Shown piece by piece: positions 14,253 to 37,591 of a DNA stretch of 64,000 bases. The notes beneath the pieces were generated by a model. It was not told the origin of the DNA, made no database searches, and saw only the letters and a program-made list of their open reading frames with translations. The stretch lies in assembly GCA_963674785.1 (NCBI GenBank), contig OY771555.1, positions 192,001 to 256,000 of the forward strand, in the 5' to 3' direction. Made by a program: the position numbers and the translations under genes. Each line of letters starts with the position of its first letter. The first letter of the stretch is position 1. The stretch is from Caldisericia bacterium. Its GTDB lineage: Bacteria; Caldisericota; Caldisericia; JAAYUI01.

Positions 14253-14292
14253 ATTATATGACTTGACCAAGCATAAGACAAGTTAGTAAAAT
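14253..14292. promoter_or_regulatory. Overlapping divergent sigma70-type promoters
   Basis: Minus strand: TTGTCT(14281-14276)-17-TATAAT(14258-14253). Plus strand: TTGACC(14263)-18-TAAAAT(14287). Confidence 0.55.
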
Positions 14293-16519
14293 GAAGCAAG
14301 TGCAATACTCGCTGTATGAAAAGAAGAGAACCAAGATTCCGTCACCGAGAAATGACGAAAAACTCAAAGCGCTAAGGAAATACTTTTTTGTTTCATTCTC
14401 TATTCTAATCCTCATTGTATCGGTGTTTTTAATAATTCAAATATGGCCAAAAAAACCAGAAATAAAACTGATACTTGGTACAGAAGGCGAGGTAGTTTTT
14501 GATGGGAAAAGCATCGGAATTGGAACAGAATTCACCCTCAGAAAACTCGAAAAAGGACTTCACACGATTGTTGCAAAGTCAACAGAAAAAATTCCTTTTT
14601 TACTTGAAGAAGTCGAAGAAATAAATATCCAACCTGGGGTTAAGACTGAACTTAAGATGCTTTCTGTTTGTGAACTGAGCATCAACAGCAATCCTCCAGG
14701 CGCAAGGGTAATGATCAGCTCAATAGATGGTGAATTGAATCTTGGAAAAACTCCGATCGACACAAAAATCCAATCCGGTCATTTTGAAGTTACTGTCAGG
14801 CTTCCTGGTTATCCAGAGTACAGAAAATCCATATTGACCGTTGATCTTGAACCTATCGACTTGAATATTGACTTAGAGCAACAAGCACTTTCAGAACCAG
14901 GTGCAAAAAGACTCATCAACAATCTTACAATCAAATCGATGATGCATGGGTCAAGCTTCATAATCAATGGAAAAAATTATACTTCACCTGGATCATTTGC
15001 AATTGACCCTGGAATTCATGAAACCACCTTGATATATGGGAAAAATGAGATATTCAAAACTGAAGTGGTATTCCCATCCGTAGGGAAACCAGTAGTTTTG
15101 TCTTGTCCAGCAAATATAACAAATCCATCCATCCATTTCTCAGGTAATCTTCATGTCATCCCTCAGGATGCAAGAGACATATCGATATCAAATGATGATA
15201 AATTTCTTTTTTACTCAACACCAACAAGATATATCTACGAGACGGTTAAATCAGTTGATCTTGAAACTGGAGAAACAAGATGGGTCGTTGATGTTGATTC
15301 CGCATGGGAAAACCGACCAATCATAATTGGTGGATGCAGCAACACCAGCGTATACGGGATGGCTGGAGTCCCTCCAAAATTCTCGGCCTCTCCATTTGCA
15401 ATCGACATAAGACACGGAGTTGAAAATCAGAGATTCTACAGTGAAAACTCTGCTCTTCCATTATCAGAAAAACCTATTGACCATTTGTCAACACCCACTT
15501 ATGCAGGAGTTTGGAGTGGTTATTACAAAACCAGCAAAGAGGTTACAGGGTTAGAGGTTCTAATTAAGTCTCAAAACGAGGACGAGAGATTTTTGAAAAT
15601 ACTTGATAAAGGATGGGATGCAAAATATCTGGGGTACTCAGAATCCGCAAAGGATAACTCAAAACCAATTTTCATATTTCACGTGTGGAAGGGAAACATA
15701 AACAGGCTCCTGATACTTGACCCCGAAAAAAAATTGTCGGACATCGAATTGGATAAGAACCCTAAGGAGAAAAATCCTGAATGGGTAACAATTGGTATAT
15801 CAATCCAACCTGACTTCCTCGTTTCAGATTCGCACAAAATCCCTGCGAAACATTTTCTGATATGTGATAGCAAAAACACATATGCAATCACTTATCCAAG
15901 TGGAAAGGTAAAATGGAAAAGATATTTCAATATCCCAACAACAGAAAAACCGGAATTTAAGATTATCAAGGACAAACCGGTAGTTCTATACACATTCGAT
16001 GTAAACCCATTTGAAGTCCAGCTTGACGTGAAAACTGGAAAAGAGGTAGATCGAAGAGAAAACCCAATCACTCCTCAAGAGTTTTTCAATCCAGATTCTA
16101 ATATGATGGGCATTTTTCTTAAGGAAGATAAATTATTTTCAGGGGTTTACGAAGACCCTCAGGGTGGTTTTAGCTATAGATGGGAAAAAAAGGTCGAAAA
16201 TGGACTAGCATTTTTAACTGAATGTGGTGGCATAACAATTTCTAGAGGCACCTTCACAGTTCTTGCGAGCCATGGGTTAGAAGAGATTTTATCTTTTAAT
16301 GTCCCAGGATTTGATCCAACCCTCCCATTTGACTATATCTCAACTCCAAACCATATTGCTCTACATAGTAACAATAAATGCTGGGTCATTAACCAAGATG
16401 GTCTAATTGTTGGATTTTATCAAGACATTTCAAAAATTGAGAAAGCTAATGACTCGTCAACTTATGCATTTTTAGCGGTTTCTAAAAATCAAAAACTCAT
16501 AATCCCCTGGTCGAACTAG
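14291..16519 (+). CDS. Membrane-anchored PEGA domain protein with propeller-like C-terminus
   Basis: N-terminal TM; LSINSNPPGARVMI...LGKTPI...GHFEVTVRLPGY PEGA motif. The true start may be GTG 14300. Confidence 0.8.
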   Translation: MKQVQYSLYEKKRTKIPSPRNDEKLKALRKYFFVSFSILILIVSVFLIIQIWPKKPEIKLILGTEGEVVFDGKSIGIGTEFTLRKLEKGLHTIVAKSTEKIPFLLEEVEEINIQPGVKTELKMLSVCELSINSNPPGARVMISSIDGELNLGKTPIDTKIQSGHFEVTVRLPGYPEYRKSILTVDLEPIDLNIDLEQQALSEPGAKRLINNLTIKSMMHGSSFIINGKNYTSPGSFAIDPGIHETTLIYGKNEIFKTEVVFPSVGKPVVLSCPANITNPSIHFSGNLHVIPQDARDISISNDDKFLFYSTPTRYIYETVKSVDLETGETRWVVDVDSAWENRPIIIGGCSNTSVYGMAGVPPKFSASPFAIDIRHGVENQRFYSENSALPLSEKPIDHLSTPTYAGVWSGYYKTSKEVTGLEVLIKSQNEDERFLKILDKGWDAKYLGYSESAKDNSKPIFIFHVWKGNINRLLILDPEKKLSDIELDKNPKEKNPEWVTIGISIQPDFLVSDSHKIPAKHFLICDSKNTYAITYPSGKVKWKRYFNIPTTEKPEFKIIKDKPVVLYTFDVNPFEVQLDVKTGKEVDRRENPITPQEFFNPDSNMMGIFLKEDKLFSGVYEDPQGGFSYRWEKKVENGLAFLTECGGITISRGTFTVLASHGLEEILSFNVPGFDPTLPFDYISTPNHIALHSNNKCWVINQDGLIVGFYQDISKIEKANDSSTYAFLAVSKNQKLIIPWSN

Positions 16520-16589
16520 AAACAACTCAAAGAAGCAACATCTGAAAAGGGTTTACCAACCAATGAACACTACAACAAAACACTGTGAA

Positions 16590-16766
16590 AACAAGTTCAG
16601 CCGGGCGTGGGAGGGTCACCCGGCTGGGAGCATCCCCCTTTCAGGGGATTTTGGGAGGTGGGATCTGGGGTAGATCCCTTCACGGACCTGGGGAAATCCG
16701 CGTAGCACCAAGCTACCACACCACTGTATGTTTTCGATTAAAAAAAAGTTGTATCTCGTGTGTATA
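16590..16766 (-). ncRNA. Putative novel structured small RNA with C-rich loops
   Basis: GC-rich island between convergent genes with five hairpins; G-U wobbles and a GAAA tetraloop are valid only on the minus strand; a promoter lies upstream. Confidence 0.7.
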
Positions 16767-16772
16767 TAACTG

Positions 16773-16801
16773 ATTATTCCATTGTTTCTCAAAACCTGCA
16801 A
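16773..16801 (-). promoter_or_regulatory. Putative sigma70 promoter of the sRNA
   Basis: TTGCAG-17 nt-AATAAT with a TG extended -10. Confidence 0.45.
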
Positions 16802-16819: not shown

Positions 16820-18091
16820 TTACTTGTTCAGAAATAACTCGGGCATTAACCCTTTTAAAAATAACTCAGACAACTTATCAGCTGCTCGTATGTTACTGGC
16901 CCCAAGTGGATCATTGGGGTTGTTATTCAATTCAGTTTTTACAATTTGGCATTCAATAAGTCCAACATTCTGATACACCGAGAATCTTTTCATATCGATT
17001 TTTATCAAATCAGCCTGGATCTCTTCACCTTTATTTATCCGAGATAAATTATTCTCGTGAATATATTTCAAAACCTTCATATCAGTTTCTGCAACTTGAT
17101 TTGACTTATATCTCAGAATGATTCGAATCGGGAGCTCTTCATCTGGATGATGAGAAAATGCAATCCAGTCTAGTCCAATATGTCTACCACAACCTTTCAA
17201 ATTCTCCAAAATTTTCAATCGATCTTCGCTCATAACTGAGCCAATCCCAAGATTTGAAGTTGAATTCTCGAGTGTCAGTTTTGACTTTATCAAAACTGCA
17301 TTTTCCGCATCACCAATAAAAGGGATCATGTCGGCAATTTCTTTTTCAGAAGCCAGGCCAACTTCTTTTTGTCTTATCAAAACAGCAGTTTCATCTGCTT
17401 GTTCAACGTTGTTCTTCTCATAATTAAAATATCCAAACTCGGGGCTATATGGGGCAACCTGTCTTCCATAAATGGGAGATTTATTTGACCAAGGAGCAAG
17501 GAATGATGTCATAGAAGAGTTGATCAGAGGTTCAGTAGAATAACCATCCTCACTCATCGCAGGCAGAAGCTTATCACCCATCGATAGATTTCCCGCAAAC
17601 CATGTTCCACCAGAAATTGTATCATGAACCATCCAATTCCAGTTTTCAGGATCATCTATTGGTTGTTTTTGTTGATATATTCTGCTTAAAAGAAAATCTG
17701 GAGAATACATCGATGCAAGAATCAAATCAAAGTCAGATGGAGAACTTGAATAATATCCAAGTCTCTCCAGACCATGCTTTATGTTGGTAAAAGAAATAAG
17801 GTTAAAGCCAAATTTGGAAATGTCATCATTGAGGCTTGAAGGAATATATCCAAGGGCGAGTTCGGCTGTTGTTCCCGTAACTTTTGGAAGTTGAAACTCA
17901 TCAAGTTCAGGTAATTCACTCAGATTTATTGGTGACACATAATCATCAGCATTATCAACTCTTTCGCTAATATTTTGATCAACTAAGTCATCTTCTGGTT
18001 CAATTCCAGCATTACCACAAGATACGAGAGAGAGAAATGCAACAAACACAAAAACCGAAACTGCAATTTTCAAAAATCTACTAATCTTCAC
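16820..18091 (-). CDS. Hypothetical lipoprotein
   Basis: Lipobox LVSC after a hydrophobic leader; 423-aa ORF overlapping the upstream stop. Confidence 0.7.
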   Translation of the reverse strand: MKISRFLKIAVSVFVFVAFLSLVSCGNAGIEPEDDLVDQNISERVDNADDYVSPINLSELPELDEFQLPKVTGTTAELALGYIPSSLNDDISKFGFNLISFTNIKHGLERLGYYSSSPSDFDLILASMYSPDFLLSRIYQQKQPIDDPENWNWMVHDTISGGTWFAGNLSMGDKLLPAMSEDGYSTEPLINSSMTSFLAPWSNKSPIYGRQVAPYSPEFGYFNYEKNNVEQADETAVLIRQKEVGLASEKEIADMIPFIGDAENAVLIKSKLTLENSTSNLGIGSVMSEDRLKILENLKGCGRHIGLDWIAFSHHPDEELPIRIILRYKSNQVAETDMKVLKYIHENNLSRINKGEEIQADLIKIDMKRFSVYQNVGLIECQIVKTELNNNPNDPLGASNIRAADKLSELFLKGLMPELFLNK

Positions 18092-22172: not shown

Positions 22173-25100
22173 ATGTTTAAGAAAGTTCTATCAATTCTTC
22201 TTGTAGTCTTTATGATCCAGATTCCGCAAATATCATTTGCGGCTGACCCCTCAATAAACGCTGAGGGCTCAGATGGTGCGATAACCATCTCATGGGAAGC
22301 ACATCCCGATGCAAGTTACTACGATGTGGTAATGATAAGACCAGAGATGGAATCACTGTCAGGTATATTTAGTGGAACAGAATGGGTAGTAGGTGACGCT
22401 GAACCAGACACAAAATATAGTTTTTTTGTTACAGCCTATGATTCAAATCTTAATCAGATATACAGGTACGATGAGGTATCAGCTGAAACAGATGCAGCAA
22501 AATCAACTCTAACGGCACCGTGCAATAAAATCCTTGCATTTACAATCAATCAAAAGCAATACACAATCGATGGTGAAAAAAGTGAAATGTCAACTGCCCC
22601 CATCATCAAAGGTGGTAGAAGCTTCCTTGTAATAAGATATGTTGTCGAACCAATCATGGGTGAAATCGGTTGGGAAGGGTCAACAAAAAAAATTACAATT
22701 TCAGCCCTCGGGCATGAAATAGAGATGTGGATTGGAAAGCCAATTGCACTCGTTGATGGAGTTGAAAGACCAATTGATCCGAACAACGCTGAGATTACAC
22801 CATTTATTGAAAACGGAAGAACTCTTGTTCCCCTAAGATTCCCAGTTGAGGCTCTTGGTTCTGGAAGCATTTCCTGGTTTGGTGACACAAAAACCGCGGT
22901 TCTTACCTTCCCAATGGGATGTGAAAGTGGAATCATCGGGAGAATAACTAACTCAGGGGAAGGATTCCTAGAGGTTTCCTCAGACTCAGGTCAAAAGGTG
23001 AAGTTTGATATTGACGGTACCTCACCATTCATCAACGGCTCATGTGTCAACATAAAATATGAAAAAATCGGGGATAAAAACATCATAGGCAGCATCACAA
23101 AAGCACCTTGTGATATGACATGCACCGGTGAAAAGGTCGCTGGCGAGGTAAAGGTTATTACTGGTGACGAAATAACAATTGAAGGACTTGATGGAAAATG
23201 GAATACATACAAGTACTCCACAGGAATCCTTAAACCAAAAGTGGGTCAGAAAATCAGTGGATGTGTAGATGGTGAAACATTAACAAAAATCAGTATTGAT
23301 CTTCCATCAAAAAAAGATATTGAGGGAGAGGTTCTTAAAAAAGATTGTGATAATAACCAGGTGATGATCTCTTCGGGTGATAAAACACTCAGAGTAGAAC
23401 TACGAGACCAGCTATCATGTGATGATTTCCCAGAGGGTGATTGTGTAAGAATTTCTGCAGAATCTCATCCACTTTCTCCAGACGTTGTTTTTGCTGATTC
23501 GGTAAAAGTTGTCCCCTGTGGTGAAAGAATCGAAAAAACTCTTTATGTCCAAAATTTCTGTGAATCAAATGCGATTGAAGCAATGGATATTGAAGGTAAC
23601 TCTTATGCTATAGAGTTGCCAACGTCACAACTTTGTGCATCATTAAAACCTGGAAACTGTATTTTGGTAAACGGAACAATCTCGGGAACTTTTATCTTTG
23701 CAGAAGACTTAAAAATCACAGATGCACCAAAAGAAGATAACTATTTGAGAGGCGTTATCTCGTCCCTTTCACCATTAAAGGTTTCACTTCCAGCGGGAAG
23801 TGAGTTTTCATTTGATAAACCAAAATACTTTGGGGCAGATTTGACTATTGGTCTTGGTATTGAACTTTGGGGTTCGATCTCTGATGATTTTATCAGAAGC
23901 GTTAAAATCAATATCTTGTCAGGGTTTCCAAGCACAATAACCGGAAGGGTAATTGGTGCAGTTTGTCAAGCAAAAAAAATACTCATCATCAACTCCGATG
24001 GAAAATTCGAAATCAAACTTCCCGAAAATATCAAATGTGAAGATATTCAAACAGGTTCATGTATCAATGCATTTGGGGAATCCTCTGATGATTCTTCATT
24101 TGATTCTGCACTTGTTCAAATCGTTCCTTGTGAATCCGAGTGTTACGGTCAAACTTTTGAAGGAATAATAATATCAACAAACTGTGATTATGGTGAAGTA
24201 TCAATCATTTTTGAAGATACCGAATACACAGTAAAAGTTCCTACTGATACAAATTGCTCAGAACTCAGCATTGGATCATGTGTGAAAATCTGTGGCTCTT
24301 TGGATGGAAAAATCATAACATCTGACTCATTTGAGGTTTTTGAGTGTTTAGAACCTGATTGCGCATCCGATATGATATATGGAATTGTCAGCTCAATTGA
24401 CCATGATTCAAGAGAAATAATCATCGAGACAGAGGATGAAACAATAAGTTCAATTGTTCCTATTACAACAGACATTGATAGCTTGGTTGTTTCTGACTGC
24501 GTTGAGTTTTGCGGAAATAAAGAAAACCCTGAATTTATGAGTCGTATTTTCTGTGAAGCTATTGACGACGTAATCTCTGGAACAGTAAAAGAAGCTCAAG
24601 ATAATGGATATCTTATTACCACAAAGGACGAAGAGCTTCTTCTTGTAACAAACAAGGAATTGTCTGTTGGGATGTGCATCAAAGCAATTGGAACAAAGAA
24701 GCTTCCAACATTCACTGCAAAAATTGTTTCCGTTGTCCCATGCTCAGATTCACCCACCCTGCAAGGCGAAATTGTTGGGGTTGATTGCTGGTCAAAAACA
24801 ATCTCAATAAAAACCTCATCTGGGACAGATACAGTAACCCTTGGCGAAAAAACACAGTGCGAAGACATTAATCTCGGTGACTGCATAATCTACAAAACAA
24901 CTGATGATGGACCTGAGATCGAAATCACCGATTGCTCTGAAAACATTACTGACACAATCCAGATCGCTATTACTTCGGCTGATGATGGATGGATTTATGG
25001 AACGACCTTAGATACCAAAAAGGCAATCAAAGTCAGAACATCAGAAAACTTTGAAATAGGCGATCTCCTGCTGGTTGACGGACACAGAGTCAATAGTTCA

Positions 25101-28100
25101 ACATTTGATAATACAGAGATTAGTGAAATTGGTGAAAAGTTTATCTCAAAGAAATCTGGCATTCTTCTCTTTGAGGGTTGGGAACCAAATTCAAAGGTAT
25201 GCTTCCTATCTGATAATCTAGGAACAAAACACATCGCAATATCACCAGAAATAGATTTTTCAGAAATCAAAATTGGGTCATATGTTGGAATTGATATGCT
25301 TGAGATTGATGGTGGATATGGAATCGGTTCAAAGATAATAACAAACGTTGACACACTCTCAAAGGATGATTTTGAATTCACACAGGTTGTTGGAGTTATC
25401 TTTGGAATAGATACAGTCGACAGTGTTATTTTGCTTCACACATACGAGGGAGATAATGTTATAGTCTCACCTTCAGACAGTTCAGTTCTGAAGACTCTTA
25501 AAACCGGTGACTGTGCGATCGCAAAAGGAAACTTGAAACTAGATACAATGTGGATCACCGAGGCAGCAATCGAAGCATCAGACTGTATGGGTGGTGAAAT
25601 TGGAAGACAATTCACAGGTGTCGTTGTTGGAATCGATGCAGTAGCAGGAAGACTTCAAGTTGCAAGCGATAACGGAGAGATATTATACACAGTGTGGCTT
25701 GAGGCTGTCTCACAGCTTACAGGATTAACTCTTGGAGATTGCGTTTCCTGCTCAGGTGTTCTCATTAAAAAGGATGATGAAAGCAACCTACTTGGAAGAG
25801 AAGTCACAAGGATAGATTGTTTAGCTGAGGCGAATAAACCAATTCTGATTGAAGGTGAAGTTGACCAAATTGATGAAGATGCAGGATTTGTAAGGATCAT
25901 AACAATTGATAAAACTTCTTGGAAAGCATTTTTGGCTGAGGATGCAAAAAACCATGATGTCGAAAAGGGAGATTTTGTTAGATGCTCTGGAAGACTTCAG
26001 GCCAAAAAAGGGATTATCGCCAAAGCATTTATAACTCCAATTACACCTGCAACATTCTACTGGAGCGTTTCAGGAGAAGTCACAGCAACAGAAGATAAAT
26101 CATTTGTACTCAAAGATAGCGATGGCAGAGACTGGAAAATGAAAGGCAATAAGCTTCCAGAGGCTGGTGATAAGATATTTGCAGTTGGAATTTTGCCAAT
26201 CGATGGTTTCGCAAGTCTGGATGATGTTAATTGGATCAGCATGGAAAACTGGGAAGAACCAATTACTAAAATCTCTGGTGTCGTTTTCGGTCTTTCATGT
26301 GGAATGGACAACCTTCTTCTAAGAGACAAATTCGCAACAATGACTTCCATAAGACTACCTAAAACTGGTTTCTGCGGTTACTTTACCGTTGGTGAATGTA
26401 TTGATATGAAGGGTCGACTCATGGCAAACATTCACGGAATGGCAAAAGTTACAAGCGTAACCCAGTCGACCGAGAACTGCTTTGAAAGAGAAGTAGCTGG
26501 TCGAGTGGTTGCAAGATCACTTGTTGATAAAGTTGCAGTTCTTCTGACAAGCGACGGAACAAAGATAAGACTTGGATTTGAAACTGAGGCAAAATGTGTC
26601 AAAGCTGAGGTTGGCAAACTTTATTCTGCAACAGGAAGATTTATGCCATACGCCCCTGATATTTTGAAAGTTGATTCTCTCAGCAAAATCAACAGTGTTG
26701 GTTCGTACAGCGCCGAAGGTATTATTGTTGCAAAAGCTGATGAAGTCATATATCTAAAGAATAACTCTGGGAAAATAGTAAGAGTAACTCTTCCGGAAGA
26801 CTCAAAATCATTCGATGGAATGATTGGTTGCAGAGTTACTGTTGAGGGTGAAAAAGACACTGATTCAAGCGTTAACGCAAAAAGCATCTCAGTTGTCAAC
26901 GACGAAGACATCGCAATCGAACTGGTTGGCAAAGTTATCAAATCGGGAAACGGGTATGCACTTCTTTCTGAGGAGGAGACCGGAAAAATATGGAGAATCG
27001 AATCTGATGATGATATTGCACTTGGTAACTCATTTGTTGTAGGATGGCAGAAAACAAACAGACATTGCATCATCACTGGTGCCAAGGTTATTAAGATCGA
27101 TAACGAACCCACAACACAGGTTTTGATGTGGGGAGTGGTCAAAACAACTGATTGTGACAACAATATTGTAGATATTCAATTGGACGATGGAACAGTTTAC
27201 GAGGTACATTCTGGATACTACGGTCAATGTGAAACATTTACTCCTGGAGAACTTGTTCAGATTGTTGGACAGGTTCAGCCAAAATCAGGCAAAGTTATAA
27301 CTGGTGCGAGAATGCTTAGACCTGGGCTTGTTGGTGACAGAAAAGTTATTGTCGGGGTAGTTACAGAGGTTTCATGCACTTCAAGAATTGTCAAACTTCA
27401 AGAGGACGACAGAGGAGATATTTCCGGTAACAACTGGGTTATCAGGCTTTCTGATGATGTAGTTTGCGAAGATATTGAAGTTGGAGACAGAATAAAGGTT
27501 GAGGGTGACCCAGTCACATCTGAAAAATATGTTCTTGAGGATGCAACTATCTCCTCACTTACTCAGAAGATTCAGGATGCTAAAATCCAGGGGAAACTCG
27601 TAACATTTGACCGGGATGAGAATATTTTGATTCTTCTTTCCGAAGGAAGATACTACAGGATAGTCCCAAAAAATGGTGACGCATTTGAAAGCACTCTTTT
27701 TGTTGGGGATGAAATAATTGTTACAGCAAAGATTGCCTCAAACAGAAAAACAATTCTTAAAGAGGCTACCTGGGAAATTGTTCCAGATGAGAAGGCATAC
27801 ATTGTTCTACATGGTTGGGTGGATGTAGCATCATGCCCAAAAATCAGGTTTTATACAAATGACGAGGAATTCTGGAGAATAAACATTGAGGAAGGTGAAC
27901 CATGCGAGATGCTCAATAAAGGTTCTAGAATTTCAGTGAAGGGATTAAAAGACCTCTCCCAGGATCATCTAATGCACCACGCCATGATTCTAAATTACAT
28001 GAAGAAAACCGTTTTCATGGGAATTATTGATGAAATAAACTGCTCAACCGGAATCGCTATCGTTGACATGGACGGCGCAAAAATGCAGGTTCATTTGGAA

Positions 28101-28949
28101 ACAGGATTTGATGGATGTCTTCAAGACAAATTCTCAAAGGGTGATGCAATTCAGGTTACGGGATGGAAACATGATCTATATCAAGAAGCCCCTGTTTACT
28201 TTGCAGAGTTCGAGAGGTTTGGTAATTCTGCAGGAATGATTCCTGTAGACTTCACAGGAGAAGTCTTAATCAATCCAGATTGCAAGAAAAATGAAGTCCA
28301 AGTAGCATCAAGCCATGTCATTTGGAGAGTAAGGCTTCCTGACGGTTATGACTGCAACAGCATAACTCAGGGTGATTGGATACACATCAAAGGTGGGATT
28401 GAGGATTGGGACAACAAGATTATCCTCGGTGAATCAATCGAAAAGGGACAGGCATGCATTTTTGGTTCCATTGCAAGAGCAAATTACAGCAAAAATGAAC
28501 TATTTGTACAAGAACTAGAAAAAGATCAACAATGGACAGTCACACTCCAAGATACAAGCAAGACTTCACAGTTTAGAACCGGTGATTTTGCAATCTTCTA
28601 CGGTGAAAGTTCATCAAGTAACAGAATGTCTATCTCAAACGCAACAGGAACAAAGCTTCAAGAAATCGAAGGAGTCGTAGATGAAATTGACTTGGCAAGT
28701 CAGTCAATCACCGTAATAAATGGAAAAAAGAAATACAAGGTGATGGTTAAAACTGATTGGATAACTGTTTCAGATTTTGAAAAAAACAAGGGTGTTTTTG
28801 CTGCAGGAATAAAAACAGACAAAAAGGCTGAGGATGGATCAATAATCTATGAAAACTGCTATATCAAATATGATATGAAGCTTGATCCAAAAAGTACTGG
28901 AAGTTCATATCCAAAACTCCTTGACGTAAGCTCCTGTATCCCAGATTAG
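22173..28949 (+). CDS. Giant secreted protein: Fn3 + stalk + many Cys-containing OB-fold-like (DUF5666-like) repeats
   Basis: Signal peptide; Fn3-like segment (ITISW...YSFFVTAY); stalk repeats; then repeats of about 70 aa resembling G.V...C....I.I...V.LP...C..L..G.CV...G. Confidence 0.85.
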   Translation: MFKKVLSILLVVFMIQIPQISFAADPSINAEGSDGAITISWEAHPDASYYDVVMIRPEMESLSGIFSGTEWVVGDAEPDTKYSFFVTAYDSNLNQIYRYDEVSAETDAAKSTLTAPCNKILAFTINQKQYTIDGEKSEMSTAPIIKGGRSFLVIRYVVEPIMGEIGWEGSTKKITISALGHEIEMWIGKPIALVDGVERPIDPNNAEITPFIENGRTLVPLRFPVEALGSGSISWFGDTKTAVLTFPMGCESGIIGRITNSGEGFLEVSSDSGQKVKFDIDGTSPFINGSCVNIKYEKIGDKNIIGSITKAPCDMTCTGEKVAGEVKVITGDEITIEGLDGKWNTYKYSTGILKPKVGQKISGCVDGETLTKISIDLPSKKDIEGEVLKKDCDNNQVMISSGDKTLRVELRDQLSCDDFPEGDCVRISAESHPLSPDVVFADSVKVVPCGERIEKTLYVQNFCESNAIEAMDIEGNSYAIELPTSQLCASLKPGNCILVNGTISGTFIFAEDLKITDAPKEDNYLRGVISSLSPLKVSLPAGSEFSFDKPKYFGADLTIGLGIELWGSISDDFIRSVKINILSGFPSTITGRVIGAVCQAKKILIINSDGKFEIKLPENIKCEDIQTGSCINAFGESSDDSSFDSALVQIVPCESECYGQTFEGIIISTNCDYGEVSIIFEDTEYTVKVPTDTNCSELSIGSCVKICGSLDGKIITSDSFEVFECLEPDCASDMIYGIVSSIDHDSREIIIETEDETISSIVPITTDIDSLVVSDCVEFCGNKENPEFMSRIFCEAIDDVISGTVKEAQDNGYLITTKDEELLLVTNKELSVGMCIKAIGTKKLPTFTAKIVSVVPCSDSPTLQGEIVGVDCWSKTISIKTSSGTDTVTLGEKTQCEDINLGDCIIYKTTDDGPEIEITDCSENITDTIQIAITSADDGWIYGTTLDTKKAIKVRTSENFEIGDLLLVDGHRVNSSTFDNTEISEIGEKFISKKSGILLFEGWEPNSKVCFLSDNLGTKHIAISPEIDFSEIKIGSYVGIDMLEIDGGYGIGSKIITNVDTLSKDDFEFTQVVGVIFGIDTVDSVILLHTYEGDNVIVSPSDSSVLKTLKTGDCAIAKGNLKLDTMWITEAAIEASDCMGGEIGRQFTGVVVGIDAVAGRLQVASDNGEILYTVWLEAVSQLTGLTLGDCVSCSGVLIKKDDESNLLGREVTRIDCLAEANKPILIEGEVDQIDEDAGFVRIITIDKTSWKAFLAEDAKNHDVEKGDFVRCSGRLQAKKGIIAKAFITPITPATFYWSVSGEVTATEDKSFVLKDSDGRDWKMKGNKLPEAGDKIFAVGILPIDGFASLDDVNWISMENWEEPITKISGVVFGLSCGMDNLLLRDKFATMTSIRLPKTGFCGYFTVGECIDMKGRLMANIHGMAKVTSVTQSTENCFEREVAGRVVARSLVDKVAVLLTSDGTKIRLGFETEAKCVKAEVGKLYSATGRFMPYAPDILKVDSLSKINSVGSYSAEGIIVAKADEVIYLKNNSGKIVRVTLPEDSKSFDGMIGCRVTVEGEKDTDSSVNAKSISVVNDEDIAIELVGKVIKSGNGYALLSEEETGKIWRIESDDDIALGNSFVVGWQKTNRHCIITGAKVIKIDNEPTTQVLMWGVVKTTDCDNNIVDIQLDDGTVYEVHSGYYGQCETFTPGELVQIVGQVQPKSGKVITGARMLRPGLVGDRKVIVGVVTEVSCTSRIVKLQEDDRGDISGNNWVIRLSDDVVCEDIEVGDRIKVEGDPVTSEKYVLEDATISSLTQKIQDAKIQGKLVTFDRDENILILLSEGRYYRIVPKNGDAFESTLFVGDEIIVTAKIASNRKTILKEATWEIVPDEKAYIVLHGWVDVASCPKIRFYTNDEEFWRINIEEGEPCEMLNKGSRISVKGLKDLSQDHLMHHAMILNYMKKTVFMGIIDEINCSTGIAIVDMDGAKMQVHLETGFDGCLQDKFSKGDAIQVTGWKHDLYQEAPVYFAEFERFGNSAGMIPVDFTGEVLINPDCKKNEVQVASSHVIWRVRLPDGYDCNSITQGDWIHIKGGIEDWDNKIILGESIEKGQACIFGSIARANYSKNELFVQELEKDQQWTVTLQDTSKTSQFRTGDFAIFYGESSSSNRMSISNATGTKLQEIEGVVDEIDLASQSITVINGKKKYKVMVKTDWITVSDFEKNKGVFAAGIKTDKKAEDGSIIYENCYIKYDMKLDPKSTGSSYPKLLDVSSCIPD

Positions 28950-35917: not shown

Positions 35918-37591
35918 ATGGGGGAAATCAAAAAAAGAGAGTATAAGTATCAGCTTCCCGCAGATAATGGTAAGCCTGGAGATAGTTTCATAACTAACAC
36001 AAACTCTGTCGTAATTATTGGTGCAAATGGTTCAGGAAAAAGTAGGCTGGGAGCATGGATGGAGATAACGTATCCCAAAAGTGTATACAGGATCGGAGCA
36101 CAGAGATCACTACAATTCAAAGGCGAAATAACAACAAAAAGCTATGAAAAGGAGAAAGACACACTCTTTTATGGAAGTGTAGGAAGCATAACAAAAGAAA
36201 AAAGAGAACGTTTTGACTTTGATGGAAAAGATAGAAATCCGACATATACATTATTTAAAGATTTTGAAAATATTCTTTCATTGTTTATTGCCAAAAAAAA
36301 TAACGAAAATGAAGATTATATTTCTGAATGTAAAAAAAGAGACAATAAAAATCAACCTCGAAACCCAATTCCTTCTTCAGTCACTGATAGATTTATTAGG
36401 ATATGGAATGAAGTTTTTTCACATAGAGTTGTTTCTTTCTTTGACTCAAAAGTAACAACTACCTTTAATAACTCAGAAATAGATCAAATCAAATATAACG
36501 GAAACCAAATGAGCGATGGTGAAAAAACAGTTCTCTATCTGATTACACAATGCTTAGTGTTGCCAAATAATATTACAATTGTTATTGATGAGCCAGGATT
36601 ACACTTACACAAATCAATAATGAATAAACTTTGGAGTGCTGTTGAAAAAGAACGTCCAGACTGTTTATTTATCTACATTACACATGACACAAGATTTGCC
36701 GCGAATCACAGCTTTAGTGATAAAATCTGGGTGAAATCATATGATGGTAGCAAATGGGATTATGCAAAAATTGATGGAAATGAGCTGCCTGATGAACTGC
36801 TTCTTGATATTTTAGGAAACAGAAAAAAAGTTTTGTTTGTAGAAGGAAAAAAAGGTAGCTTAGACTACAGATTATACTCAGAGATTTACAGAGATTATTA
36901 CATAATTCCATGCGGAAGTTGTGAAAATGTAATCAGATACACAAAAGCAATAAGAAAAAATAATGACCTTCTACAAGACTTCGAATGTCAGGGTATAATA
37001 GATAGAGATTTTAAATCTGAAGGCGTAATAGAAAAATATAAGAAAGATGGGATTTACACACTCGAAGTAGCAGAAGTCGAAAACCTATTTATTGTTAAAG
37101 AAGTGCTAGAGTATGTAAACAAACATGAAAATTTCGAATCGACAGAGAATATTGAGAAATCTAAACAACAACTACTAAGTATTTTTTCATACAGAATAAA
37201 TGAGCAAATTGCAAAAGCAATCGTATCTGAAATAAAATATCGGCTATCTTCAATACCAATTCCTGAGAAAGAAACTGAACTTGAAAGTCAATTGGATGAC
37301 ATCAAAAATGCAATAGATTACGAGAATACCAAGAACTCAATAACAAGGAAATTTAAAGATATTGAAAATCTCAGAAAATATGATGAAATGCTTAAAGCTT
37401 TCAACAATAAATCCCTAGCAAAACTGATTGGAAAAAACTTTGGGAAAGACAACAATGATTATTGTGAATTCATAATCAGATCACTCAATGGTGATGATAG
37501 ACAAGAAGTCATCAACGCCCTCAAACCATACCTACCAGCCGAAATCCCAACTGATCCAAACAAGGAAGAGAATCTAGAGAACAGAAACTAA
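35918..37591 (+). CDS. ABC-type AAA ATPase fused to a DUF4435/TOPRIM-like domain (PARIS AriA-AriB fusion-like / OLD-like)
   Basis: Walker A GANGSGKS, signature MSDGEK, Walker B IVIDEP, H-loop ITHD; then TOPRIM LFVEG...SLD, IIDRD and EVENL. Confidence 0.85.
   Translation: MGEIKKREYKYQLPADNGKPGDSFITNTNSVVIIGANGSGKSRLGAWMEITYPKSVYRIGAQRSLQFKGEITTKSYEKEKDTLFYGSVGSITKEKRERFDFDGKDRNPTYTLFKDFENILSLFIAKKNNENEDYISECKKRDNKNQPRNPIPSSVTDRFIRIWNEVFSHRVVSFFDSKVTTTFNNSEIDQIKYNGNQMSDGEKTVLYLITQCLVLPNNITIVIDEPGLHLHKSIMNKLWSAVEKERPDCLFIYITHDTRFAANHSFSDKIWVKSYDGSKWDYAKIDGNELPDELLLDILGNRKKVLFVEGKKGSLDYRLYSEIYRDYYIIPCGSCENVIRYTKAIRKNNDLLQDFECQGIIDRDFKSEGVIEKYKKDGIYTLEVAEVENLFIVKEVLEYVNKHENFESTENIEKSKQQLLSIFSYRINEQIAKAIVSEIKYRLSSIPIPEKETELESQLDDIKNAIDYENTKNSITRKFKDIENLRKYDEMLKAFNNKSLAKLIGKNFGKDNNDYCEFIIRSLNGDDRQEVINALKPYLPAEIPTDPNKEENLENRN

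Follow-up and report, generated by a model that had tools for sequence, protein, structure and literature searches.

Locus and secondary structure of the element

The window analysed here, a stretch of 64,000 nucleotides (nt) from a Caldisericia bacterium (contig OY771555.1, positions 192,001 to 256,000), carries a GC-rich island between two convergent open reading frames (ORFs; 14291-16519 on the plus strand and 16820-18091 on the minus strand). The island, in which a preliminary description based on the DNA letters alone had suspected a new multi-target small RNA (sRNA), reaches a GC content of 0.65, compared with 0.31-0.41 in the adjoining 100-base windows. On its minus strand lies what is very probably a real and hitherto undescribed gene for a small RNA of about 116 bases, confined to one family of uncultured Caldisericota bacteria. 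The predicted sRNA spans 16588..16703 (-), with its 5′ end placed from a −10-like box and its 3′ end from a U-rich tail, and a covariance model (CM) of the family matches positions 16586-16711 with 124.9 bits.

Read on the minus strand, the element opens with helix 1 (16702-16681), whose arms CGCGGAUUU and AGGUCCGUG enclose a CCCC loop, followed by helix 2 (GGGAUCU[ACCCC]AGAUCCC, 16678-16660), with ACCCC in its loop. The single-stranded linker 1, ACCUCCCAAA (16659-16650), lies between helices 2 and 3, the latter (AUCCCCU[GAAA]GGGGGAU, 16649-16632) having a loop that varies among homologues. The motif of linker 2, GCUCCCAG (16624..16631), extends into the foot of helix 4 (16626-16598), a terminator-like hairpin with arms CAGCCGGGUG and CGCCCGGCUG and the loop ACCCUCCCA, after which comes the U-rich tail AACUUGUUUU (16588-16597), as previously noticed. 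Five hairpins had originally been proposed; all of their sequences are present on the minus strand and four are conserved, whereas the first, GUAGC[UUGGU]GCUAC (16716-16702), is present in the window, is not conserved and overlaps the −10-like box. Sequence and fold together contain the five G-U pairs that had been counted earlier, three in helix 1 and one each in helices 3 and 4.

The 141 nt of the minus strand from 16590 to 16730 fold with a minimum free energy (MFE) of -60.8 kcal/mol (z -3.50), and none of 200 shuffles was as stable; the plus strand of the same region gave z +0.15, with 111 of 200 shuffles equally stable. The fold is thus genuine, confined to one strand and not explained by chance. 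Folded alone, the predicted sRNA has an MFE of -52.2 kcal/mol and z -4.79, and its MFE and centroid structures are identical.

Taxonomic range and copy number

Homologues were sought by DNA search in 60 relatives, namely ten genomes of the window's own family (f1) and 50 from five other families. Clear homologues (E 1.6e-14 to 1.6e-47) were recovered from nine of the ten same-family genomes, and nothing better than E 0.02 from the 50 others. The CM, built from nine sequences, returned a single match of 118-153 bits in each of nine f1 genomes and in the window's own genome, and none in 73 genomes from the class's five other families. In the tenth f1 genome (G005), the promoter and the first ~40 nt of the element are present before contig C63 breaks off, and the matching downstream gene opens a different contig. 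The element thus occurs in all 11 genomes of one Caldisericales family, in three genera (g1, which includes the window, g2 and g3), the G005 copy being cut by the contig end. The window's own genome (2.23 Mb, one contig) holds one copy, which, together with the one CM match in each of the 10 matching genomes, rules out a multicopy repeat or miniature inverted-repeat transposable element.

Pattern scans of public collections yielded 14 genome-contig and 10 metagenome matches, of which nine and seven, respectively, fit the CM, and contributed one additional sequence variant, L059. The remaining five genome-contig matches (Marinifilum, Rubrobacter, Verrucomicrobiales and Dehalococcoidia) and three metagenome matches fail the CM and are attributed to chance. 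Analogues in other families were sought with a three-fold CTCCCA pattern across 84 genomes of the class, and outside f1 this returned only AT-rich, dissimilar stretches. One such stretch, of ~68 nt with three CTCCCA words, is conserved in six of eight genomes of family f5, genus g9 (L111-L116); it is coding-like and not a homologue of the sRNA. The same pattern also matched a tandem C-rich repeat outside the window (G000:C1:813995-814042; unit ~21 nt, CTCCCACCCCGTCATCCCGCA), near which, at ~805-809 kb of G000, GC-rich stretches stood at the top of a crude duplex list.

Covariation and sequence conservation

Each of the nine distinct homologues folds alone into the same four hairpins, with identical MFE and centroid structures and z-scores from -4.1 to -6.9. 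In an alignment of 17 sequences (nine distinct rows), standard pairs fill 98.4% of 252 pair cells, and two-sided changes occur at six pairs, five of them in helix 1. The covariation score was 0.198, compared with 0.006-0.046 when the partners were slid by 1-3 columns; the observed pairing and covariation values were reached by 0-1 of 500 shuffles, and the six two-sided pairs by one of 500.

The changes are distributed unevenly along the RNA. Helix 1 shows two-sided changes at five of its seven modelled pairs among the nine distinct sequences, around an invariant CCCCA loop. In helix 2 every cell pairs, and the single two-sided change, G-C to A-U, is found in the window itself; the loop UACCCC is invariant, with a CAA insertion in g3. 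The stem of helix 3 is invariant except for one U-A/U-G pair and that of helix 4 except for one C-G/U-G pair, alternations that fit a minus-strand RNA only, in agreement with the strand assigned earlier from the G-U pairs. The loop of helix 3 is variable: GAAA, originally highlighted as a GNRA tetraloop, is present in the window and in G003 and is no feature of the family, since the other members have CUAAC, UUAG, UAAC, CCCAA or CCCCAA. Because of this variability, the loop is C-rich in g2 and g3 only.

Between homologues the RNA is 78-88% identical, compared with 21-54% for the protein encoded upstream, and the flanks are unalignable. A conserved reading frame is excluded, since loops and linkers carry insertions and deletions of 1-3 nt. 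The substitution pattern thus points to selection acting on the RNA rather than on a protein, and the earlier proposal of a minus-strand non-coding RNA gene is upheld by its single copy, its conservation in three genera and its compensatory changes.

Promoter-like unit and predicted transcript ends

Comparison of 12 loci (the 11 genomes plus L059) revealed a promoter-like unit, TAAT[C/A/G]GA-N18-TAnnnT, located 5-7 nt before helix 1 in all 12, with a spacer of exactly 18 nt and diverged sequence. In the window it comprises the conserved upstream motif TTTAATCGA (16734..16742, -), which is probably the −35 region in the form T[C/A/G]GAnn with a 16-nt spacer, and the −10-like box TAGCTT (16710..16715, -), which follows the family pattern TAnnnT and overlaps the first of the five originally proposed hairpins. 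The corresponding box is TATAAT in g2, TATCAT or TAGGAT in g3 and TAAAAT in L059. Judged by sequence, T[C/A/G]GAnn-N16-TAnnnT resembles a sigma-70 promoter with a sub-optimal −35 element; the two elements of a tRNA gene in this genome, TTGACA and TAGAAT, are arranged in the same frame. The possibility that the upstream motif is a general promoter or regulon signal was rejected: TTAATNGA-N18-TAnnnT occurs four times in the 2.23-Mb genome, which is no excess over the other spacings tested, with three to seven matches each.

The unit places the predicted start near 16703; the formerly first hairpin would thus extend across the −10 box and the start site and is not supported as part of the RNA. 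Combined with the U-rich tail, this start gives an RNA of ~116 nt, in place of the transcript of about 180 nt proposed before. The promoter suggested at that time, TTGCAG-17-TGgAATAAT, is not conserved, was not called by a promoter scan and falls where g2 and g3 have coding sequence.

At the 3′ end, a U-rich run follows the stem of helix 4 at once or after one base in g2, in G009 (g3) and in L059 (UUUUUUAUUU; AUUUUUGUUUU; UUUUUUUAUUUUU), and the tail in G007 reads UAAUUAUUUUA. In the window, helix 4 has a 9-nt loop and its U-run starts 4 nt past the stem, and no canonical terminator was called there.

Exposed C-rich motifs and their complementarity to ribosome-binding sites

Five C-rich motifs are invariant in all sequences and unpaired in all folds of the nine distinct homologues, which extends to the family the exposure previously described for the window. 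Two are placed in hairpin loops (CCCCA in loop 1 and UACCCC in loop 2), two in linkers (CCUCCCAA in linker 1, unpaired in nine of nine independent folds, and UGCUCCCAG in linker 2, where UGCUCCCAGCCGGG is likewise invariant in all sequences) and one in the terminator loop of helix 4 (CCCUCCCAC). In g2 and g3 the third loop is also C-rich, raising the number to six. Within this set CUCCCA is repeated three times and CCCCAG twice, and the unpaired parts are nearly free of G, both in the MFE and centroid folds of the nine homologues and in the invariant columns.

The motifs CCCC, CCUCCC and CUCCC complement the G-rich ribosome-binding sites GGAGG, GGGAG and GGGG. The 3′ end of the 16S rRNA in the same genome reads GGAUCACCUCCUUUCU, and linker 1 of three g1 members (the window, G003 and G001) contains CACCUCC, identical to 7 nt of that end. 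Ribosome-binding sites of this kind are common in the genome: a 5-mer Shine-Dalgarno (SD) core was found at positions −20 to −4 of 563 of 1816 crude first-ATG starts, compared with 39 of 1816 control windows, and GGGAG in the same interval of 53 starts compared with seven controls.

Proposed mode of action

We propose, with somewhat more belief than doubt, that the element encodes an sRNA of the UCCC/C-rich type that acts by base pairing, independently of chaperones, and regulates one or several G-rich ribosome-binding sites. The proposal draws on the UCCC-type design, on the frequency of SD-led starts and on the finding of no Hfq or CsrA gene in this one-contig genome, which is 92% complete by marker genes. 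The sRNA would probably be transcribed from its own sigma-70-like promoter (TTTAATCGA ... TAGCTT) and end at the terminator-like hairpin, and its four consecutive hairpins would leave five invariant C-rich motifs, or six in some genera, free of pairing. These motifs would then most likely pair directly, without a chaperone, with one or more mRNAs at their SD regions, and such pairing would be expected to block 30S binding, in the manner of the redundant CU-rich sites of LhrC and of the UCCC motifs of RNAIII, RsaE, SprD and FsrA. We infer transcription, the RNA ends, mRNA pairing and the translational effect from these features.

Several observations weigh against this proposal. At the window locus, a simple consensus scan detects no promoter and no terminator; the −35-like element always lacks the consensus T at position 2, and the U-run that follows helix 4 is weak or displaced in genus g1, including the window. 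Among sequencing runs recorded as RNA, none contained the locus, and the RNA ends are predictions. Helices 3 and 4 are neither supported nor contradicted by covariation in the 17-sequence alignment, because both barely vary. Complementarity to SD sequences is itself weak evidence, as it is expected of any C-rich RNA, and neither exact-complement nor family-wide pattern searches found a target conserved across genera. Among the 30 loci listed for each of two family-wide patterns, described below, no orthologous start regions recurred across genera.

Candidate targets were examined in several ways. Full-length duplex folding against the start regions of 1834 crude ORFs returned only long, loop-ridden artefacts and was discarded. 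The exact-complement search found two perfect 12-nt matches at start regions, one at a DUF4435/AAA_21 gene and one at a BD-FAE esterase gene. The former, a 510-amino-acid (aa) gene of the OLD/ABC-ATPase-like, defence type (36059-37591, +), has the start region GGCUGGGAGCAU-gg-AUG, the perfect complement of AUGCUCCCAGCC in the RNA, a match that may be due to chance. The esterase was rejected as a conserved target, and also counts against the proposed mechanism, since its 12-nt match is lost in the orthologues of G002 and G003. It belongs to a pair of tandem BD-FAE-type secreted esterase genes outside the window (G000:C1:1312006-1314341; L085, L096) that are 54% identical, with further paralogues across the family; the 12-nt complement of linker 1 lies just upstream of the SD of one of these genes. 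Across the family, the pattern TGGGAGGG-N2-12-ATG gave 84 matches compared with 39 for a backward control, and CTGGGAGCA-N0-12-ATG gave 43 compared with four, most of them inside genes; we suspect that the excess of the latter is a codon effect (CTG-GGA-GCA).

Alternative explanations

The position of the element raises the question of whether it is an independent gene. The lipoprotein gene (16820..18091, -) lies directly upstream of the RNA in every family genome except G001 and no terminator intervenes, so that part or all of the RNA may be 3′ untranslated region (UTR) of the lipoprotein mRNA, which also counts against the proposed mechanism. In the full form of this explanation, which we consider unlikely, the element acts purely in cis as the 3′ UTR of the deacetylase-lipoprotein operon and no separate trans-acting RNA exists; it would serve termination and protection from 3′ exonucleases, or its C-rich motifs would pair with G-rich stretches elsewhere in the same mRNA. 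Such a role would suit g2 and g3, where the lipoprotein stop codon stands 2-3 nt before the conserved upstream motif and helix 4 is consequently the first terminator-like hairpin after the gene, as well as the shared range of the RNA and the lipoprotein family, a profile of which matched 10 of 10 f1 genomes and none of the 73 genomes from other families. It is harder to reconcile with the promoter-like unit conserved at a fixed distance from helix 1, or with G001, in which RNA and lipoprotein gene are on different contigs and the promoter unit is retained with the RNA. The loops are moreover invariant despite the fast-evolving gene in front of them, which a mere stabiliser would not require, and the lipoprotein start regions contain no conserved G-rich pairing partner beyond a short SD. 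A cis-regulatory 5′ leader or riboswitch was rejected, as the next downstream gene runs convergently to the RNA, both in the window and in every relative whose flanking sequence is long enough. We likewise find it doubtful that the exposed motifs bind a protein, for instance one with a KH domain, that the RNA would titrate or deliver as CsrB and RsmZ do for CsrA. KH domains favour C-rich RNA, two KhpA/B-type KH proteins are encoded above the Pfam cut-off, and five to six near-identical short motifs in loops and linkers, invariant well beyond the 4-5 nt needed for an SD match, would be understandable in such a sponge or scaffold, as would the lack of a conserved mRNA target in the complement and pattern searches. 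Yet no CsrA, Hfq or Jag_N was found in the genome, the gene neighbourhood links no protein partner to the RNA, its conserved neighbour being an exported lipoprotein, and base-pairing sRNAs such as LhrC have redundant motifs just as typically.

Two further explanations build on the likeness to the 16S rRNA tail. That the RNA acts as a global anti-SD mimic, lowering SD-led translation as a class in favour of SD-less or putative leaderless mRNAs, seems to us quite improbable: the five to six motifs per molecule, the 7 nt that three g1 members share with the 3′ end of 16S rRNA and the frequency of SD-led starts would all suit such a function, but a single sRNA species would face competition from thousands of ribosomes, and the motif prefers GGGAG-type sites, which form a small subset (53 of 1816 crude starts). 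It is improbable, too, that the RNA, with its five to six exposed motifs and in a host in which neither Hfq nor CsrA was found, is a multivalent 16S-tail mimic that binds many G-rich ribosome-binding sites at once and thereby shifts translation from strongly SD-led towards weak-SD or leaderless mRNAs; such a mimic may be wired to the cell-envelope operon that precedes the RNA. Finally, we give almost no credence to the element lacking a function as RNA, whether as a repeat, the remnant of a mobile element, a small protein-coding gene or a GC-rich island arisen by chance. The region is overlapped on both strands by short ORFs (40-62 aa), but frame-breaking indels separate the homologues, the element is single-copy and conserved in three genera with compensatory changes, and no shuffle was as stable.

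Relationship to known small RNAs

A new sRNA family had been suggested from the outset, and comparison with Rfam agrees with this: at gathering scores, the only match in the window was a tRNA-Lys located elsewhere, which ARAGORN also called. The best sub-threshold match was ar14 (RF02344), with 15.7 bits for the window, 26.2 for a g2 homologue and 26.9 for a g3 homologue, compared with a gathering score of 58.8 bits. Weaker sub-threshold matches of the g2 homologue were to anti-hemB and mmgR, other C-rich sRNAs. LhrC, RsaE/RoxS and other named UCCC sRNA families were absent from three Rfam scans at E values up to 10.

The trait of this functional class, C-rich motifs unpaired in loops and linkers with G nearly absent from the unpaired parts, is nonetheless present. 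As described in PMC4132741, LhrC1-5 of Listeria monocytogenes are short sRNAs with redundant CUCCC/UCCC sites in a hairpin loop, an inter-hairpin stretch and the terminator loop, and with few unpaired G; LhrC pairs with the SD region of its target, for lapB blocking translation, and does not need Hfq. That account describes five copies per genome and two hairpins, whereas the present RNA is single-copy with four hairpins and five to six motifs, belongs to a different phylum and has no sequence or Rfam relationship to LhrC. RNAIII, RsaE, SprD and FsrA are named there as further users of UCCC motifs. Like these Bacillota RNAs and RoxS, the element exposes C-rich regions, which in those RNAs are presumed or demonstrated to bind SD sequences, independently of Hfq and in a low-GC genome (Geissmann 2009, PMC2790875; PMC4132741); it differs from them in hairpin order and motif set, with no Rfam match at E up to 10.

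The cuckoo RNAs of Alphaproteobacteria (alpha-r14/CcsR1-4/RSs0680) share with the element a row of adjacent hairpins showing an anti-SD-like C-rich motif (PMC4615179, PMC8034643). By the definition given in PMC4615179, they consist of 2-4 adjacent hairpins with CCUCCUCCC in each loop, and some are described as co-transcribed with the preceding gene. In contrast, CCUCCUCCC is found in none of the nine distinct homologues, where CCCUCCC is confined to the terminator loop and linkers contain two of the motifs; the Rfam score is far under 58.8, and the RNA is single-copy in a Caldisericota host. By analogy, we regard the element as a new RNA family of a known kind, one that would work like LhrC, RsaE/RoxS and the cuckoo RNAs and belongs to none of them.

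A literature search on small RNA in Caldisericota found nothing related, and among candidate regulatory small RNAs the element would be the first from this phylum. Its C-rich design, matched to ribosome-binding sites, would recur far from Bacillota and Alphaproteobacteria in a genome without detected Hfq or CsrA, a recurrence that supports the view that such a design arises readily and works without those chaperones. In practical terms, the CM and a precise transcript prediction, with ends and promoter, can serve RNA family databases and checks in metatranscriptomes from the habitats of these uncultured bacteria.

Neighbouring genes

The 423-aa product of the gene directly upstream of the RNA (16820..18091, -) is a lipoprotein that bears a signal peptide and the lipobox LVSC and has no Pfam or NCBIfam match. 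Its orthologues (L003, L005, L007-L011) are also lipoproteins. A structural model (mean predicted local distance difference test score 75) was loosely similar in fold to the Treponema lipoprotein TP0453 (Foldseek E 5e-6, template modelling score 0.32-0.54), a likeness that is uninformative about the RNA. The lipoprotein gene overlaps the end of a polysaccharide-deacetylase/peptidoglycan-binding gene, upstream of which lie a 503-aa ORF without an assigned family and a Memo-like gene. The convergent gene downstream of the RNA varies by lineage, encoding a PEGA-domain protein in the window and in G003 and a NIF3-like protein elsewhere.

In G001, the 743 nt upstream of the RNA (L004; G001:C45, 1-743) contain no ORF of at least 40 aa in any frame and gave no Rfam match. 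An ORF-free stretch of this length is unusual for such compact genomes and may represent a decayed gene or another non-coding region. In the window, a 2258-aa ORF (22173-28949, +) is located near the operon that ends in the RNA.

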